This document shows, piece by piece, positions 46,346 through 58,516 of a stretch of DNA of 64,000 nucleotides (within the stretch, counting starts at the first letter, position 1; every line of letters starts with the position of its first letter). This stretch comes from Escherichia phage vB_EcoM_EP57. The position numbers and the translations under genes are program-made. The stretch is taken from sequence record OR544956; one strand, 5' to 3'. The notes below the pieces were generated by a model. It searched no databases and was not told the origin of the DNA. It saw only the letters and a program-made list of their open reading frames with translations.

Positions 46346-47140
46346 TTGAGCAAGTTGAATACACTTGATCAATATTACACTAACCCCGCTTATGCGGGGT
46401 TCTTATGTGATAAGATCAAAGAAATTTTTGGAGAGGAAGCTAACTACGTAGAACCATCTGCGGGAGAAGGAGCTTTCTCTTTTTGTTTTAAAAACATAAC
46501 TTCTTTTGATATTGATCCTAAGTTTGAAGATTGTATTGAGGCAGATTTTTTAGCTCAATCTGTTGAGTCTGTTGGTAGTGTAACTGCTTTTGTCGGTAAT
46601 CCTCCGTTTGGAAAAAATGCCAGTCTTGCCATTAAGTTCTTTAACCATTGTGCTGAAATGTTGGATAACGAAGGTGGTATTTGTTTTATCTTGCCTCGCA
46701 CATTTCAAAAAATCTTTTTTGCACACAAACTAAATCCCCACATGCATCTTCTTTACGAAGAAGAATGTCCAAAAGGATCTTTTATTCTTCATGGAGAACC
46801 TTGGGATGTTCCTTGTGTATTCCAGATATGGATTAAACGCAACGAGAAGCGTTCTCCCGTTGTTTTAGGAGAAAATCGACTGTTCGTATTAGGTAACAGT
46901 AAAGACTACGACATAGCCGTTAGGAGAGCGGGAGCAAGTGCAGGTAAAGTGTTATCAGAAGAAGATTCTTTATCTGAAGCATCTACCTACTTTTTAAAAG
47001 CCTTGACTTCTGATCTTAAAACACGTATCATTGAGGCTTACCCGTTACTTAAAGCTGAAGCTAGTAAAACTGCGGGAGTAAGAAGTTTAAGTTTAAAAGA
47101 ACTTCAGTGGGTTCTGGAGAACATTAGAAAGGAGGAATAG
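46346..47140 (+). CDS. DNA N6-adenine methyltransferase
   Basis: SAM motif EPSAGEGAF and catalytic GNPPFG. Confidence 0.65.
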   Translation: MSKLNTLDQYYTNPAYAGFLCDKIKEIFGEEANYVEPSAGEGAFSFCFKNITSFDIDPKFEDCIEADFLAQSVESVGSVTAFVGNPPFGKNASLAIKFFNHCAEMLDNEGGICFILPRTFQKIFFAHKLNPHMHLLYEEECPKGSFILHGEPWDVPCVFQIWIKRNEKRSPVVLGENRLFVLGNSKDYDIAVRRAGASAGKVLSEEDSLSEASTYFLKALTSDLKTRIIEAYPLLKAEASKTAGVRSLSLKELQWVLENIRKEE

Positions 47141-49737
47141 TGAGTAAGTTTACATGGGATATTGAAGCAAACGGATTGTTGAATAATGACACTATTGATT
47201 ATTTAGCTAGTCCTTATCGTCTCAAAGACACATTTCAAATGCACTGTATTGTCTTAGAGAACCATGAAACAGGAGAAATAGTAGCTTTCCACGATGGCCC
47301 TAAATACATCTTTGATGGGCGTCCTTATGAAGAGTCAGATGGTAAATACACATATGTTCTTAAAGAGTATGTGGCGCAAGATTACACACATTTTCAACTA
47401 AAAGATTTCCCAGATTTTATTAATCATGAAGGTTATTTTAAAGATAAGCCTGAATATCTGGTTGAAATGGCTGTGGCTCACAACGGTATCAACTACGACT
47501 GGTTGGCTACAAAACTGTTTTATGGATTAGATTACAGTGTTAAATATAATACGTGGGGCAAAAATAAGGTAAAACTTATTGACTCCTTGATTTTGAGTAA
47601 AGTGTTAAACCCAGATCGAAAGATTGAGGGCAAATCAGGACATAGCTTGGCAGCACTTTCTCGAAAAGCAGGTGGTGATGTAAAAATAGATTTCCGTAAA
47701 GAGATTCCAGAAGAAGATCGATTTAAGACTTTTGCTGCGGATATGCTTTATTACTGTATCTATGACAACAAAGCCAATACGAGCGTATATAATTACCTTA
47801 TGGAAGAATGGGGTGATTATGATAAATGGGAAGGTCCATTTGAACTTGAACAACGTGTAGCAGACATTATTACACGTCAGGAACACCGTGGATTTGCTTT
47901 TAACATGAAACAAGCAGAAGAGAACCTTGCTTTTTTGGATGCAGAAATGGAGCGTCTTCGTTTACTCGTTGAGCCTATTTTGCCACCTAAACCAGCAACA
48001 AAAGGTTATCTTAAGGCTTTTATTCCACCTAAGTTGCAAATTAAAAAGAACTTAGAGCCAACTAACCATATGATCAATTTTGCTAAGAAACATGATGGTC
48101 ATTTGGAAGAGAGGGATGGCGATTGGTGGTTAGTTATGTTGGGGAAAGAGTGGAAACTGCCAGTTGCAGCAGATGAGCCTCTATGTGATCCTAACATCCC
48201 TGCAACATTGAACGATACAACCCATATTAAAAACTGGCTTGTAGGATTAGGTTGGGTACCGTCTGAATATAAAGATAAAGACTTGACGCTTAAATCTGGC
48301 ACCAAAATTAAAAAGAGCGAGGAAGAACTTCAGAAAGGTATTCGAGCTTACGTTGAGCAAACTCTATCTTCTAATTTTTGTCAGGATCGTTGTGATCATC
48401 TGGAGTGCACACCGGAAACCTTGGAAAGGAAGATTCAAGAGCGTATAGCAAAAGGTAAAGGTCGCGGTCTTAAAGTATTGACTAACCCGTGTTTTACCAA
48501 AGGTCAGGAAAAAGAAATTTGTCCTAACCTGCAAGCTTTGGGTGAGAAGTTTCCTTATGCTACACAGATTGTAGAATACTTAACGTATAAGCATCGTAGG
48601 AACTCTATTTTAGGTGGCGGTGCTGATTGGGAAGAAGATGAAGAAGATCAAGAATACGATAAAGGTTTCTTAGCCGCAGTAAGGGCGGATGGTCGTATTC
48701 CTACCCCAGCAGCTACATGTGATGCTGCAACCTCTCGTATGAAGCATAGGTCTGTAGCTAATATTCCTCGTGTCACATCTTTGTTTGGATGGGAGATGCG
48801 TAACTTGTTTGGTGTAGAGGTTCCTAAATACTTCCAGATTGGCTACGACTTCGACTCTTTGGAAGCAAAAATTGAATCACACTACTGTTGGCGGTACGAG
48901 CCGGAGCCACACGAATATTGTAACGCTCTGTTATTAGAGAAACCTAATGATGTTCACACAATGATGGCAAAACGTATCACTGAAACTATCGGACGTAAAT
49001 TTGAACGTAGTCCTGCTAAATCTGTTAAGTATGGTATTACCTATGGTGCACAAGCCGACAAGGTTGCTAAAACAATTGGTAGCGATAAGTTTACAGGTCA
49101 ATTGGTGTTCGATGCTTTCTGGGAAGCTGCATTCCCATTGGCGCGTCTTAAAGAACGTTTAAACGATTTCTGGGTTAAGACTGGTAAACAATATGTTTTG
49201 GGTATTGACGGTCGTAAGGTTCCTACTCGTTCTGCTCACGCGATTCTTAACTCTCTGTTCCAAAGCGGCGGGGTTATCTGTGCTAAACGTGCAATGGTTA
49301 TTTATGACGACATGATCGAAGAAGAAGGGCTAAGTGTTGACTTCTTTAAAGATGACTGGAAGAATAAAGATTTCGTGCAACAAATGATTGCATATCACGA
49401 TGAAGCCCAGCTTGAAGTTTCTCGTAACCTTGTAGAATTTAAATGGTTTTCACCTGAATCATTAGGTTGGAAGAAAGTAGACGATCCTGAAGAACAAAAG
49501 AAAATTGATAAAGAATGCCTTGCTAAAGTTGAAGAATGGAAGCATAATAAGGAAAAAGAGACGGGACAAATTTGGGCTAACATTCATGAATCTCCCAAAG
49601 GTGGATGGTTTACAGCCTATAGTCGGGCAGGTGAACTTGCTGCTTTAGCTGTTACTAAGGCTGGAGAATTTTACAATCTTAACGTTCAGCTTACTGCCGG
49701 ATATGATGTGGGTAACTCTTGGGCGTCCTGTCACTAG
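47140..49737 (+). CDS. family-A DNA polymerase with 3'-5' exonuclease domain
   Basis: DIEANGL exo motif, K..YGITYG motif B, YHDE motif C. Confidence 0.85.
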   Translation: MSKFTWDIEANGLLNNDTIDYLASPYRLKDTFQMHCIVLENHETGEIVAFHDGPKYIFDGRPYEESDGKYTYVLKEYVAQDYTHFQLKDFPDFINHEGYFKDKPEYLVEMAVAHNGINYDWLATKLFYGLDYSVKYNTWGKNKVKLIDSLILSKVLNPDRKIEGKSGHSLAALSRKAGGDVKIDFRKEIPEEDRFKTFAADMLYYCIYDNKANTSVYNYLMEEWGDYDKWEGPFELEQRVADIITRQEHRGFAFNMKQAEENLAFLDAEMERLRLLVEPILPPKPATKGYLKAFIPPKLQIKKNLEPTNHMINFAKKHDGHLEERDGDWWLVMLGKEWKLPVAADEPLCDPNIPATLNDTTHIKNWLVGLGWVPSEYKDKDLTLKSGTKIKKSEEELQKGIRAYVEQTLSSNFCQDRCDHLECTPETLERKIQERIAKGKGRGLKVLTNPCFTKGQEKEICPNLQALGEKFPYATQIVEYLTYKHRRNSILGGGADWEEDEEDQEYDKGFLAAVRADGRIPTPAATCDAATSRMKHRSVANIPRVTSLFGWEMRNLFGVEVPKYFQIGYDFDSLEAKIESHYCWRYEPEPHEYCNALLLEKPNDVHTMMAKRITETIGRKFERSPAKSVKYGITYGAQADKVAKTIGSDKFTGQLVFDAFWEAAFPLARLKERLNDFWVKTGKQYVLGIDGRKVPTRSAHAILNSLFQSGGVICAKRAMVIYDDMIEEEGLSVDFFKDDWKNKDFVQQMIAYHDEAQLEVSRNLVEFKWFSPESLGWKKVDDPEEQKKIDKECLAKVEEWKHNKEKETGQIWANIHESPKGGWFTAYSRAGELAALAVTKAGEFYNLNVQLTAGYDVGNSWASCH

Positions 49738-49755
49738 TTAACATATTGTTTTATA

Positions 49756-49775
49756 AGGGGCTTCTGCCCCTTTAT
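49756..49775 (+). terminator. rho-independent terminator
   Basis: AAGGGGC-TTCT-GCCCCTT plus TAT. Confidence 0.55.
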
Positions 49776-49785
49776 AGGAGGAAAT

Positions 49786-49977
49786 ATGCATTACGATTTA
49801 GATTGTCTTGGTATGCCTTACCTACCAGATGAATTTGAAGGCGAAGAAGAACGTGAATGGGACGATGGGGATATCCGTTGTTGGTCTTGTGGTAAAGATA
49901 TGTCTTATGAACAACATATGCACAATGATGGTTTCTGTATACATTGTTATAATGAAATTGATCTGGAGGAAGATTAA
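49786..49977 (+). CDS. Cys/His-rich small protein (63 aa)
   Basis: CWSCG ... CIHCY. Confidence 0.5.
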   Translation: MHYDLDCLGMPYLPDEFEGEEEREWDDGDIRCWSCGKDMSYEQHMHNDGFCIHCYNEIDLEED

Positions 49978-50144
49978 TGGGAAATGGTATCATGATTTGC
50001 TATAAAATTGTGCGTATTGTCGGAGACGAAGTTACCACTCGGTATTTTATGATAGAGTCTCAAGCCGATGAGGTTTACAATGACTGGCTTGAAAAAGGTG
50101 GATACGATTTTGTATCTAAAGAAACTTTCCGTTTAGAAGTATAA
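49977..50144 (+). CDS. small hypothetical protein (55 aa)
   Basis: hand-found ORF after GGAGGAAG. Confidence 0.4.
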   Translation: MGNGIMICYKIVRIVGDEVTTRYFMIESQADEVYNDWLEKGGYDFVSKETFRLEV

Positions 50145-50154
50145 GGAGAAAACA

Positions 50155-50373
50155 ATGCGTAAACTAGTGAGCTTTAATGTTTCAATTCTTATTGATGAAC
50201 AAAATGAAGATGTTATTAAAGGTCTTGCAAATAAGATTGCAGGTGGAATGACGGAAGCTGAAGTGTGGGAAGAATGTGCTCGACTTTATGAGGAAGGTGT
50301 TATTGAGGTCTTGGGAGATGAGATTAATATGGACGATATTGTTAAAGTAACTGTGGAGCGTATCAATGACTAA
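50155..50373 (+). CDS. hypothetical protein (72 aa)
   Basis: ORF with AAGGAG RBS. Confidence 0.55.
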   Translation: MRKLVSFNVSILIDEQNEDVIKGLANKIAGGMTEAEVWEECARLYEEGVIEVLGDEINMDDIVKVTVERIND

Positions 50374-50868
50374 ATCAAAACAAATCAATATTGCCAAAGA
50401 AATTCTTACCGTATTAAAGATCGCTGATCCTAATTCTGTCTTGGCTGGCGGTGCTGTTCGTGATTGGCGTATTCTTGATATTGCTGGACGTGATCTGGAT
50501 TTTTACACATCTCTTCCTGCACATCGGAAGGTGTTACTGGTCTTAAACACGTTTTTGAGTTTGAACGTGATGGTCAGCTTTGCAACCTTATGATTATGGA
50601 ACCAAGCGTAATGACAACCTTTCTAAATGAGTTTGATCTGTCCATCTGTCAAGCTGCATTTGATGGGAAGGATTGTTATTATTCTAAAGATTTTGAAACA
50701 ACCTTGGAAACAGGGATCTGCTTCTTGCACAAAGATGTTAGAGAAGATGCCAAACACGTTATTAAAATTGCTACACGTTTCCCATATCTTCGTTTTGTGA
50801 AAGAGGTTAAGGTTCCACGTCCACCTCAAGTAGATACCAGATTGGAAGAAGATGATATTCCTTGGTAA
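50366..50868 (+). CDS. Pol-beta-superfamily nucleotidyltransferase, frameshifted
   Basis: GGAVRD and DLD motifs; C-terminal part continues in another frame. Confidence 0.45.
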
Positions 50869-50875
50869 TTAAAGC

Positions 50876-50905
50876 TTGACAATATTAAACATTTTATGAT
50901 AGGAT
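50876..50905 (+). promoter_or_regulatory. sigma70-type promoter
   Basis: TTGACA-N18-TAGGAT. Confidence 0.5.
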
Positions 50906-50913
50906 AGCATTCA

Positions 50914-51306
50914 ATGACTGAACGTTCTAAGATAGCTGTTGAAACTGTTTATGGAAACTATACCAGTTTGACACTAGTTGAGAAAAATGTTGTAGGTCTT
51001 GACAACTCTTTTTATTTTCAAATTTTGGTTATTCAAGGTGGAAACAAGAAGCTAACTGCTCGTGTTGAAACATCTGAAATAATTGAAACCACTGTTACAA
51101 ACAAAGAATTCATTTCACTGCAAGATACAATCCGAAACGTTATAGACGAAGAAGGCAAAGCTGCCACAATTAAACTCGGAGGTTTCCCAGTGCAAATAGT
51201 TCATTTTCCTAATGGTGAAATTGGAGTTGGAATAGGTAAAGGTAAATACCTGTTAGAGCAAGATGATATGGAAAGACTCCGCTCTTTCTGTGCAAAATTA
51301 ATGTAA
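50914..51306 (+). CDS. hypothetical protein (130 aa)
   Basis: ORF. Confidence 0.55.
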   Translation: MTERSKIAVETVYGNYTSLTLVEKNVVGLDNSFYFQILVIQGGNKKLTARVETSEIIETTVTNKEFISLQDTIRNVIDEEGKAATIKLGGFPVQIVHFPNGEIGVGIGKGKYLLEQDDMERLRSFCAKLM

Positions 51307-51322
51307 TGTAGAGGAGATAATA

Positions 51323-52210
51323 ATGTCCGTAATTAATACTGAAACTGATCGTAAAGGCAAAACCGTAACTTATGCAACTGGTATCGTAGACTACGTTAAA
51401 CTGGATAAATTCGCTGAACCTAAAACTTTCCATTGGGAAGGAAAAACGATTGTTTCAACTCACCGAGCTTCTCTTGTTCTGAAAGAGAAAGGTGCTAAAC
51501 CAGATGAGAAAGGTGTTTGGATTTCTCTTGGTGACATTGAACTGAAAGAAGGTTATGAAAACCTGCAAGTCAAAGAAGGTGATAACTGGATCACTATTGA
51601 AAAAGGTGTAGAAGTAAGTATTGATATTGATCGCGTTGATAATAAAGGCGGTAAAACTTACTACAATACTAAAAAATCTCGTATTACAGTATTGTCTACC
51701 GAGGGTGTTCAGAAGTCTAACAAATCTTCTGGCAATAAGGGGTCCAACGATGCGGCTCCTAAACAATCCTATAAAAAACGTGATACTGTAGGTCTGGAAA
51801 CTGGTCACGCAGTAAATGGTGCACTGGAACTGATTCGTAATGGTGTTAAAGGCGATGCTTTCGATATTGCTGGGGTTGTTCAATCTGCAACTGTCACGCT
51901 GAAATCTGAAATTGCTGAATCTCGTGGCGTTGATATTAATGATTATGATCTTGGGGCATCTGTTGGTCACGCTATTCTCAATGCTTGTAAAGACCATACT
52001 ATTAAGACTGTCTCTGTAGAAGATCTGATTGATTCTGCTCGTAAAGTTCTGGCTCTGTCTGATAAAGTTGCTGCTGCCATTCGTGGTTCAGCAGAACAGC
52101 CTAAGAAAGAAGAGAAGAAAGAAGTTAAGAAACCTGAACCACAACCAGAACCAACTCCAAGTAATCAAGAAGAACCTCCAATGGACTTCGACGATGATAT
52201 TCCATTCTGA
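51323..52210 (+). CDS. putative ssDNA-binding protein
   Basis: acidic C-terminus MDFDDDIPF as in E. coli SSB; optimised codons. Confidence 0.5.
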   Translation: MSVINTETDRKGKTVTYATGIVDYVKLDKFAEPKTFHWEGKTIVSTHRASLVLKEKGAKPDEKGVWISLGDIELKEGYENLQVKEGDNWITIEKGVEVSIDIDRVDNKGGKTYYNTKKSRITVLSTEGVQKSNKSSGNKGSNDAAPKQSYKKRDTVGLETGHAVNGALELIRNGVKGDAFDIAGVVQSATVTLKSEIAESRGVDINDYDLGASVGHAILNACKDHTIKTVSVEDLIDSARKVLALSDKVAAAIRGSAEQPKKEEKKEVKKPEPQPEPTPSNQEEPPMDFDDDIPF

Positions 52211-52220
52211 TCTTATTGAT

Positions 52221-53849
52221 TTATAAAGAGTTTTTATAAAAGAAAAGATACTCAACAACCATACCAGGTAAGCTTGCTGCCCCTGTTGGCGTTATTTCTG
52301 CTACCATTGTTTGTGTTGTTCCTACATCCATCGCAGATAAGCTAGGAGTGTAAACGCTCAATGTTGAAGCATATCCTCCAGAGGTATCTGATAAAGTTGT
52401 TCCTTCAGCGTTTAAGGCTGTCATACCTGCATCAAAACCACCTTCTGCATGGAAAGTCATTAAACCAGTAGATGATATTGTCATGTTTGCAGGGGCAGAA
52501 GAAGTGTATTTAATATTGAAAAGTTTACCTCCTTCTGGGCTAACAGAATGTGTCAACTGTTTAGTTCCACCTACAATACAAATTCCTAAAGAATCTGTAG
52601 TTAAGCCAGTTGCCAGAATATCACCCGTAATCACGGAGCTTGCTATTGGTGTGAATTTATTATAGTTTAGACCGCTATTGAACAGATACGAGGCTTTCCC
52701 ATCTTTCCAAATACCGGAATAATACATATCTCCATTATAAACGAAAAAGGTTCCTTGATAACCTAATTGGTTAGTAACATCCATATTCAGCGTATGAACG
52801 CTTGTGAGCTTGTTTATATCCCAAGAACCCACTCCTTCAGGTTTAACTGGTTTTCCCACTTGGAGTGGATCTCCGCTCGCAGAATCATACCCCAAACCTA
52901 AGTTTGCAGTGTAGTTCTTACCAATAGCCCACAAGGAATTATTGATCCCAACGAAAAAAGAGTGGCGGCTTGGTGGAAACTTCCATGTTGAGAAACCTGC
53001 TGCAAAGGTATCCAGTTTAGTGTAGGTTGTTTCTGTATTAGACCTAACATATAAGTAGTTTACTGTACCCGAGCCACCGGAGGTATCTCCTACAACTATT
53101 GTCTGGGAAACTGTATTGATGTAATCTTTGACATACACTGTTTCAGTAGCGGATATCTTAGCATTGACAAAAGCTGTTGTTGTGTTATTATTACCTGCTA
53201 AACCTTTACTAGCTCCACAAACACGCAAGGTTCCCACATTGTTGACATAAGAGCATTGGTTGTAACCTGCATCAAAAGCAACTGCTGCACTTGTTATCTG
53301 ACGAGGAGTAGAAACTTCGTTAGTAGTACTTGCACCTAAACTACCTACTGTGTTTTGACCTGATCCATAAAGAACACCACTATTCATTAACCAGAGAGTG
53401 TTGTTATATCCTCCCTTAACCTCTTTAAGATTGGCTAAAGAGATAGTCCCTGTTATTACAGATGGAAAGCTGGTCCAAGTAGTTACACATGCGTCCGTAC
53501 CACCTGCCGCTATAGATCCTACCAATCCTGCTGTCAATCCTGAATATTGCCATCCCCCACTGTTAGTTTTAATAACAAAACAACGATCTGCGGTAAACAC
53601 ATCCGCTACTACAGTAGAAGCTAAGTGGAAATTATTGAATCGTGCACTACGAGTTCCATCTGCAATCTCACCAAAAAGGTTTGCGCCTTGAGTAAACAAT
53701 CTACCATCATTAAGCAAAATTGCTAAACTGCTATTAGAATTACCAGCATTATCTGGGTAATCTAAAGTGATTACTTTTTTAACAATACCTGCTGGCAGAG
53801 GAACGACACCAGTGCTGGTCATAATAGTAAATATTGGAATTGGAAACAT
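52221..53849 (-). CDS. tail fibre / receptor-binding protein (542 aa)
   Basis: G/T/S/N-rich beta protein next to fibre genes. Confidence 0.5.
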   Translation of the reverse strand: MFPIPIFTIMTSTGVVPLPAGIVKKVITLDYPDNAGNSNSSLAILLNDGRLFTQGANLFGEIADGTRSARFNNFHLASTVVADVFTADRCFVIKTNSGGWQYSGLTAGLVGSIAAGGTDACVTTWTSFPSVITGTISLANLKEVKGGYNNTLWLMNSGVLYGSGQNTVGSLGASTTNEVSTPRQITSAAVAFDAGYNQCSYVNNVGTLRVCGASKGLAGNNNTTTAFVNAKISATETVYVKDYINTVSQTIVVGDTSGGSGTVNYLYVRSNTETTYTKLDTFAAGFSTWKFPPSRHSFFVGINNSLWAIGKNYTANLGLGYDSASGDPLQVGKPVKPEGVGSWDINKLTSVHTLNMDVTNQLGYQGTFFVYNGDMYYSGIWKDGKASYLFNSGLNYNKFTPIASSVITGDILATGLTTDSLGICIVGGTKQLTHSVSPEGGKLFNIKYTSSAPANMTISSTGLMTFHAEGGFDAGMTALNAEGTTLSDTSGGYASTLSVYTPSLSAMDVGTTQTMVAEITPTGAASLPGMVVEYLFFYKNSL

Positions 53850-58264: not shown

Positions 58265-58516
58265 TTACCCCTTATTCTGTGTACGTTTAACTATGTCATC
58301 TAGCATCATTTGGATAGTCGCATTCTTGAGGTCCATAATCTTTTCAATTTTTTGCTCAAGGGTGTTGTTATTTGCCATTAATGTAGAGTTAATTTGATTT
58401 AGCATCTGGGTAAGTTCGGCTTTAGTTGCGTAAGTTGATTCAACAAAGACCAACTTCTTCTCTAGCTCTCGACTTTTCTCCTCCATTTCCTCAAGATCAG
58501 AGCCGAATTTATCCAT
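58265..58516 (-). CDS. coiled-coil structural or chaperone protein (83 aa)
   Basis: helical, charged. Confidence 0.45.
   Translation of the reverse strand: MDKFGSDLEEMEEKSRELEKKLVFVESTYATKAELTQMLNQINSTLMANNNTLEQKIEKIMDLKNATIQMMLDDIVKRTQNKG

Follow-up and report, generated by a model that had tools for sequence, protein, structure and literature searches.

A nucleotidyltransferase gene broken, probably by assembly, in the record of Escherichia phage vB_EcoM_EP57, and the predicted class II head-plus-neck core of its intact homologs

The stretch of DNA analyzed here, 64,000 nucleotides from the deposited genome of Escherichia phage vB_EcoM_EP57 (record OR544956; "the window" in what follows), carries what we are confident is a broken copy of a conserved Phapecoctavirus nucleotidyltransferase gene; the break is probably an artifact, and the intact protein appears to be the head-plus-neck core of a class II nucleotidyltransferase. 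The genome is a Phapecoctavirus of the phAPEC8 type, and sequence comparison identifies the gene as a homolog of an already known protein of 197 aa, gp083 of phAPEC8 and gp125 of tuntematon (YP_007348551.1, YP_009986501.1; PHROG 10174, PHROG 1614 "nucleotidyltransferase"). It is the same gene in the same place: the DNA polymerase and three small ORFs precede it, gp126 and gp127 follow, and the flanks are 98-99% identical. Unlike phAPEC8 gp083, which reads through its 197 codons uninterrupted, the window copy is short of 91 bp and falls into two ORFs, one of 75 aa and one of 92 aa. Relatives annotate the gene either as "nucleotidyltransferase" or as "putative tRNA nucleotidyl transferase / poly(A) polymerase". 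The sequence-only reading had proposed a minimal Pol-beta-type nucleotidyltransferase at this locus, a description that holds for the intact homolog, on fold and motifs, but not for the window copy, from which codons 55-84 are gone.

The first of the two ORFs runs on the plus strand from 50366 to 50593 and reads MTKSKQINIAKEILTVLKIADPNSVLAGGAVRDWRILDIAGRDLDFYTSLPAHR, native residues 1-54, and then 21 residues from the wrong frame before it ends at a TGA (50591-50593); its product is identical to WPK29285.1 of vB_EcoM_EP57. The two motifs on which the sequence-only reading relied are where it saw them: GGAVRD, motif A of class II nucleotidyltransferases and identical in E. coli Cca, at 50447-50464 (plus strand), and DLD, which supplies the metal-binding carboxylates D43 and D45, at 50492-50500 (plus strand). 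Its claim that the C-terminal half continues in a shifted frame is likewise correct. The frame departs from the native protein after R54, and the remainder lies in a second frame, in register with 50368 rather than 50366, which encodes EGVTGLKHVFEFERDGQLCNLMIMEPS and continues to DDIPW before stopping at 50866-50868. The second ORF, of 92 aa (50590-50868, plus strand), begins at 50590 with an ATG that shares bases with the preceding TGA (ATGA); it corresponds to native M106-W197, contains none of the catalytic residues, and is identical to WPK29286.1 of the same phage. The native-frame codons for E85-L105 occupy 50527-50589 on the plus strand, a stretch that the N-terminal ORF reads in a different frame and that precedes the second ATG; neither ORF translates them. 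The candidate third carboxylate, E95 (50557-50559), falls in this stretch, 3′ of the junction. The 75-aa product thus keeps helix 1, GG/RD and DxD, and is without the helix at 56-66, the strand at 70-74 and the helix at 77-84; lost with them are G69 and Y84, the latter 97% conserved. Since 30 codons are missing, Y84 among them, and E95 is translated in neither ORF, the nucleotidyltransferase as written in the window encodes, to judge from its codons, no active enzyme.

A three-way alignment of the window with tuntematon and phAPEC8 accounts for the shifted frame. The sequences are nearly identical throughout the gene except for one clean 91-bp gap after gene base 161, with the junction at 50526-50529 (not assigned to a strand) and 2 nt (GA) of ambiguity in its placement. 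The missing stretch is 58393-58481 of tuntematon (NC_052660.1), that is, codons 55-84 (TEEQIQGLIASALMGTNIRKLGNKEASDNY) plus one base, and the loss of whole codons plus one base therefore shifts the frame. Every relative examined lacks this lesion. Sixty-four phage records cover 80% or more of 49700-51400 at identities of 90-99% (95-99% in 60 of them), always in two pieces and with a reference span longer by 91-92 bp; the corresponding span measures 271-272 bp in all 60 listed records of the 64 matching, versus 181 bp in the window. The intact gene is annotated as a 594-bp CDS in many of the matching records. Moreover, a 25-mer across the window junction had no match in IMG/VR, a metagenome collection or a genome collection; the intact junction, used as a positive control, was found. 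No further contigs encoding the 75-aa product are on record.

Three other accounts of the split gene were considered and set aside. A single-base slip or a programmed event as the cause of the frame shift is ruled out by the 91-bp gap against every relative examined. For programmed -1 frameshifting specifically, the 100-nt zone in which both frames are open contains no X_XXY_YYZ slippery heptamer; its only homopolymeric features are two T5 runs, both of which also occur in the intact relatives. Finally, an enzyme assembled from two separately translated pieces is rejected, since neither ORF supplies E95 or residues 55-105.

Two further family members are shorter than expected. One, P0019 (105 aa, from a Logan assembly), is another allele of this Phapecoctavirus gene with a frameshift, which lies elsewhere, after residue ~75, and leads into the same out-of-frame tail; it could reflect a sequencing error or an occasional natural gene loss. 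The other is the ICP1 ORF223 homolog (L008, 3977-4580), which is annotated as 137 aa and has stop codons where its relatives read on, and which may be another truncated or split copy.

The simplest notion is that the 91-bp gap is an artifact of assembly or of joining in the source record, and this is also the most likely one. The gap is not alone. Against tuntematon (NC_052660.1, 53-77497, ~99% identity) the window shows 26 gaps, each between 28 and 2227 bp long and together amounting to 13,382 bp; 22 of the 26 have a length that is not a multiple of 3. Many of the gaps put essential genes out of frame or delete them. They fall inside or across genes for NrdD (twice), TerC, a tail protein, a tail fiber and a colanic-acid-degrading tail protein, among others; the tail-fiber assembly gene and the baseplate wedge gene are also gapped, the latter being broken into ORFs of 391 and 113 aa. 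Apart from the one at 50526-50529, junctions include those at 2015/2016, 16694/16695, 23409/23410, 26477/26478, 52245-52248, 58585/58586, 59912/59913 and 61147/61148, and the shortest aligned blocks between gaps are 71 and 86 bp. The vB_EcoM_EP57 record as a whole is 130,723 bp, versus ~150 kb in its relatives. According to its publication the phage is a myovirus that forms plaques, and its genome was assembled from Illumina reads by SPAdes (PMC11657129). An assembly artifact is the likeliest cause because several of the gaps throw tail, baseplate and NrdD genes out of frame in a phage that nevertheless makes plaques; a viable phage with all these lesions is not plausible. In such a record, fragmented contigs or uncovered regions would have been joined without gap markers (Ns), and the real phage probably carries the intact gene.

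From the opposite perspective, the deletion would be real and the isolate would carry a pseudogenized, dispensable nucleotidyltransferase gene. The deposited record and its protein entries do contain the deletion, the microhomology of only 2 nt at the junction is what illegitimate recombination would be expected to leave, a frameshifted allele is seen once more in P0019, and the ICP1 homolog likewise stops early. Against this stand the 25 further gaps in the same record, several of them frameshifting or deleting structural or nucleotide-metabolism genes of a plaque-former, and the presence of the deletion junction in 0 of the 60 listed relatives and 0 of the 3 large collections. We consider a real deletion improbable, and return to the assembly artifact as the working explanation. 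The source record thus looks gapped, and this is a quality warning for any split, frameshifted or "minimal" gene read from the window; frameshifts and split genes from it should therefore first be checked against intact relatives. A sibling record from the same study, vB_EcoM_EP32a, was also inspected over 24 kb (OR544954.1, 20001-44000), which map to ~26.1 kb in the nearest Mosigvirus relatives. The stretch is ~2.1 kb shorter than in all of these nearest relatives, and its distal tail-fiber region is in short CDSs. The shortfall is consistent with the same assembly problem, though as support it is weaker, since the region includes the variable tail fiber.

What the intact gene encodes can be approached through its homologs, and here structure is considerably more telling than sequence. 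An AlphaFold2 model of the intact 197-aa homolog, built on a 102-sequence alignment, has a mean pLDDT of 91.6 and a pTM of 0.84. (An earlier model from a shallow alignment, with a pLDDT of 65 and Foldseek E values of at least 2.7e-3, was not used for conclusions.) Searched against the PDB with Foldseek, the model's best 24 matches consist entirely of class II tRNA nucleotidyltransferases, with E values from 3e-5 to 5e-3 and probabilities of 0.99-1.00, including the A- and CC-adding enzymes of A. aeolicus and the CCA-adding enzymes of T. maritima and Arabidopsis. The matches span 177-208 aligned columns and cover only the first ~190 residues of targets that are 350-517 aa long; the protein is therefore modeled as a head and neck with nothing else attached. 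On this model we assign the intact protein to the Pol-beta superfamily of nucleotidyltransferases, class II CCA-adding/poly(A) polymerase type. Structure prediction thus returned the nucleotidyltransferase fold whose absence, under the sequence-only reading, would have counted against it. Such an enzyme would transfer a nucleotide to a 3′-OH using two metal ions.

Sequence comparison backs the class II assignment only weakly. The match to PHROG 10174 is strong (E 6.5e-63 for the intact protein, 4.8e-27 for the N-terminal fragment and 1.4e-5 for the C-terminal fragment). Profile searches against nucleotidyltransferase families, which the sequence-only reading had suggested, did find PolyA_pol and CCA profiles over motif A, but all below their cut-offs. 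PF01743 (PolyA_pol) scores 13.9 bits (E 0.07) with the intact homolog and 12.6 with the window's N-terminal fragment, against a gathering cut-off of 23; the best score among relatives scanned singly is 21.3 bits, and 14 of 102 relatives match at E < 0.01. NCBIfam TIGR02692 reaches 12.6 bits against a cut-off of 438.8, and the Pfam and NCBIfam scans yielded nothing beyond such sub-threshold matches, confined to motif A. Searches of PDB sequences gave marginal CCA-enzyme matches, again over motif A only, with a 102-sequence profile (E 0.007) and spurious matches only with an 11-sequence profile, while hhalign against E. coli Cca aligned 24 columns at a probability of 25%. A reading as a MenT or MNT (minimal nucleotidyltransferase) toxin was also tried and rejected, on weaker structural scores and with the gene context against it.

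The family to which the protein belongs is large. A family profile search collected 1041 cluster representatives (at 50% identity), mostly of 180-220 aa. In the 102-sequence alignment G28, G29, W34, D43 and D45 are invariant; Q6, A10, A27, A30, R32, D33, Y84, K164 and F169 are at least 90% conserved, R32 at 97% and D33 at 92%; and 73% of the 102 members have E or D at the position of E95. GGAVRD and DxD are shared with the class II enzymes (PF01743; E. coli Cca and PAP I, and the enzymes of T. maritima, B. stearothermophilus and A. aeolicus). By eye, the likeness extends further: motif B of E. coli Cca, RRDLTINA, resembles Phapecoctavirus DLSICQA, and its motif D, EDPLRVLRVARF, resembles EDAKHVIKIATRF. 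The differences from these enzymes are equally clear. They are 350-520 aa long with a body and a tail, whereas the present protein has 197 aa and neither; W34 is invariant in the gp083 family; and the templating Arg is here His or Tyr and the templating Asp is not conserved. No conserved nucleotide-templating EDxxR motif was found across the 102 members: 14 of 102 have D at the Asp position (158), and at the Arg position (161) 61 have H (60%) and 37 have Y (36%). The Phapecoctavirus protein itself has EDAKH at the motif D site, with R changed to H. Among the stand-alone proteins of similar size is PDB 2LA3 (S. pneumoniae NP_344798.1), a bacterial protein of 191 aa described as a "CCA-adding enzyme head domain" protein, which gave no match in the family profile search of PDB sequences.

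These features bear directly on the function proposed in the sequence-only reading, in which a functional minimal nucleotidyltransferase, expressed by way of the frame shift, repairs tRNA 3′ ends cut by host nucleases. The proposal has points in its favor: the GGAVRD...DLD pair is identical to that of CCA-adding enzymes, relatives carry the tRNA nucleotidyl transferase / poly(A) polymerase annotation, the best fold match is to class II tRNA nucleotidyltransferases, and the EDAKH...RF stretch of the Phapecoctavirus protein resembles EDPLR...RF of motif D. However, the frame shift is of no help to it, given the absence of a slippery heptamer in the overlap zone, relatives that need no frameshift, and a fusion product that would still be without residues 55-84. 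The repair activity fares no better. The fold matches reach no further than the first ~190 residues of their targets, so that the body and tail needed to bind tRNA have no counterpart here; family members do not preserve the Asp and Arg with which EDxxR acts as a template; the protein passes neither the Pfam nor the NCBIfam cut-off; and tRNA genes are absent from the window and rare near relatives, only 2 of the 80 related IMG/VR loci having any within 6 kb. Because body and tail are absent, EDxxR is not conserved, and tRNA genes are absent or rare nearby, tRNA 3′-end repair is unsupported, and we give the proposal as a whole almost no credence. The usual label of the gp083 family, tRNA CCA or poly(A) enzyme, is poorly supported. 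A literature search found nothing on the function of the phAPEC8 or ICP1 nucleotidyltransferase.

Consideration of the gene neighborhood points elsewhere. In the window the order is DNA methyltransferase (46346-47140), family A DNA polymerase (865 aa, 47140-49737, plus strand), three small ORFs, the nucleotidyltransferase, gp126 and gp127, so that the polymerase is upstream on the same strand, and it is a conserved neighbor of the family: a homolog of the window's polymerase lies 0.1-4.2 kb away in 39 of the 80 IMG/VR loci, on the same strand in 39 of 39, and the linkage holds even at 24-30% polymerase identity. In a Vibrio podovirus the nucleotidyltransferase gene is directly 3′ of a 5′-3′ exonuclease gene, and in ICP1 it comes a few genes after the DNA ligase gene. 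The 64-kb window has no tRNA genes, and neither do the first 40 kb of tuntematon. The frequency of polymerase linkage (39/80), set against the rarity of nearby tRNA genes (2/80), favors DNA replication or metabolism over tRNA repair as the role of the protein, the basis for this being gene linkage only.

The C-terminus of the protein offers a second hint. The last residues of the C-terminal fragment form an acidic tip, EEDDIPW (50845-50865, plus strand), that is like the C-terminal tip of single-stranded DNA-binding protein (SSB). Two genes on, the gp127 homolog (295 aa, 51323-52210, plus strand) ends in PPMDFDDDIPF, with the tip at 52184-52207; E. coli SSB has DFDDDIPF as its C-terminal tip. 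Gene gp127 is annotated as SSB in some relatives, and its PHROG SSB matches cover the tail only. The EEDDIPW tip is in the lower-confidence tail of the model, and a DDIPW tip, which the protein has in rV5-like phages, is found in only 9 of 102 family members; its resemblance suggests docking on the proteins that bind SSB tips. The intact protein may thus act on DNA or on replication intermediates at the replisome.

An intriguing possibility is that this replisome connection intersects with phage defense. The sequence-only reading had offered the gene as a counter-defense candidate, an idea for which we find an independent if weak lead, although by a mechanism different from the tRNA repair it proposed. 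Gad2 is a phage protein of ~400 aa with a predicted nucleotidyltransferase domain, and deletion of Gad2 renders SPbetaL7 sensitive to Gabija (bioRxiv 10.1101/2023.05.01.538930). We took the verified Brevibacillus laterosporus Gad2 sequence from the supplement of the same preprint (bioRxiv 10.1101/2023.05.01.538930). With hhalign, the gp083 family matches a 40-sequence Gad2 alignment at a probability of 95.5% (E 1.5e-8, 119 columns) and B. laterosporus Gad2 alone at 92.9%. The shared region is the N-terminal catalytic core, only Gad2 residues ~16-142 being aligned. Both are phage-encoded nucleotidyltransferase domains, with the conserved blocks in the same order and a common signature, AGG...DhDhY...Q-h-h...FDxS/T-h-C. 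A precomputed PF26128 (Gad2) tag is attached to two family members, P0009 and P0014, on the latter marked as weak, and our local Pfam copy gave no PF26128 match. The differences are considerable: ~400 aa with a large C-terminal region in Gad2 versus ~180-220 aa in the gp083 family, and a Gad2 glycine motif, AGGTITSLF, that is without the R-D-W of the family's GGAVRDW. Because the extra ~250 residues of Gad2 are absent from the gp083 family and R-D-W is missing in Gad2, the profiles place the family as a remote relative of Gad2 and not as a member.

Whether kinship extends to function can be put in either of two ways. In the first, the intact family would be a Gad2-like counter-defense enzyme whose nucleotidyl transfer neutralizes a DNA-targeting system such as Gabija. 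The profile matches, to the N-terminal nucleotidyltransferase domain of the Gad2 family and to the experimentally verified B. laterosporus protein by itself, speak for this, as do the common signature, the Pfam tags on two members and the Gabija sensitivity of the SPbetaL7 knockout. On the other side, only ~120 residues are in common and the C-terminal ~250 aa of Gad2 have no counterpart; in place of R32, D33 and W34, which never or hardly vary in this family, Gad2 has T/S/L; and the local Pfam copy does not reproduce the tag. Gad2 (SPbetaL7 ORF_159) has a demonstrated anti-Gabija phenotype and none is known for gp083, while the mechanism of Gad2 itself was still unknown in 2026 (PMC12904381). 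Moreover, conserved synteny with the DNA polymerase across distant phages resembles the pattern of a replication-module gene more than that of a variable accessory anti-defense gene. Taken together, this makes a Gad2-like enzyme an unlikely reading of the family.

The second way joins the two lines of evidence: the gp083 family would be a replisome-linked modifier of DNA ends, nicks or nucleotides that lets the phage escape DNA-targeting immunity as Gad2 does, a long shot of about the same order. Any counter-defense action might then resemble that of the remote relative Gad2 instead of tRNA repair. Neighborhood, tail motif and remote homology are what replisome and Gad2-like roles rest on, and they suggest them weakly; the window adds nothing to this second reading, because its copy is broken. 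In any case, the linkage to the polymerase and the kinship to Gad2 make a role in DNA metabolism or counter-defense worth an experiment on an intact homolog.

One further element of this neighborhood deserves mention. Between the DNA polymerase and the nucleotidyltransferase, at 49786-49977, lies a conserved ORF of 63 aa (PHROG 25582) with two CxxC pairs (CWSCGK...CIHCYN) that give it a zinc-ribbon-like appearance.
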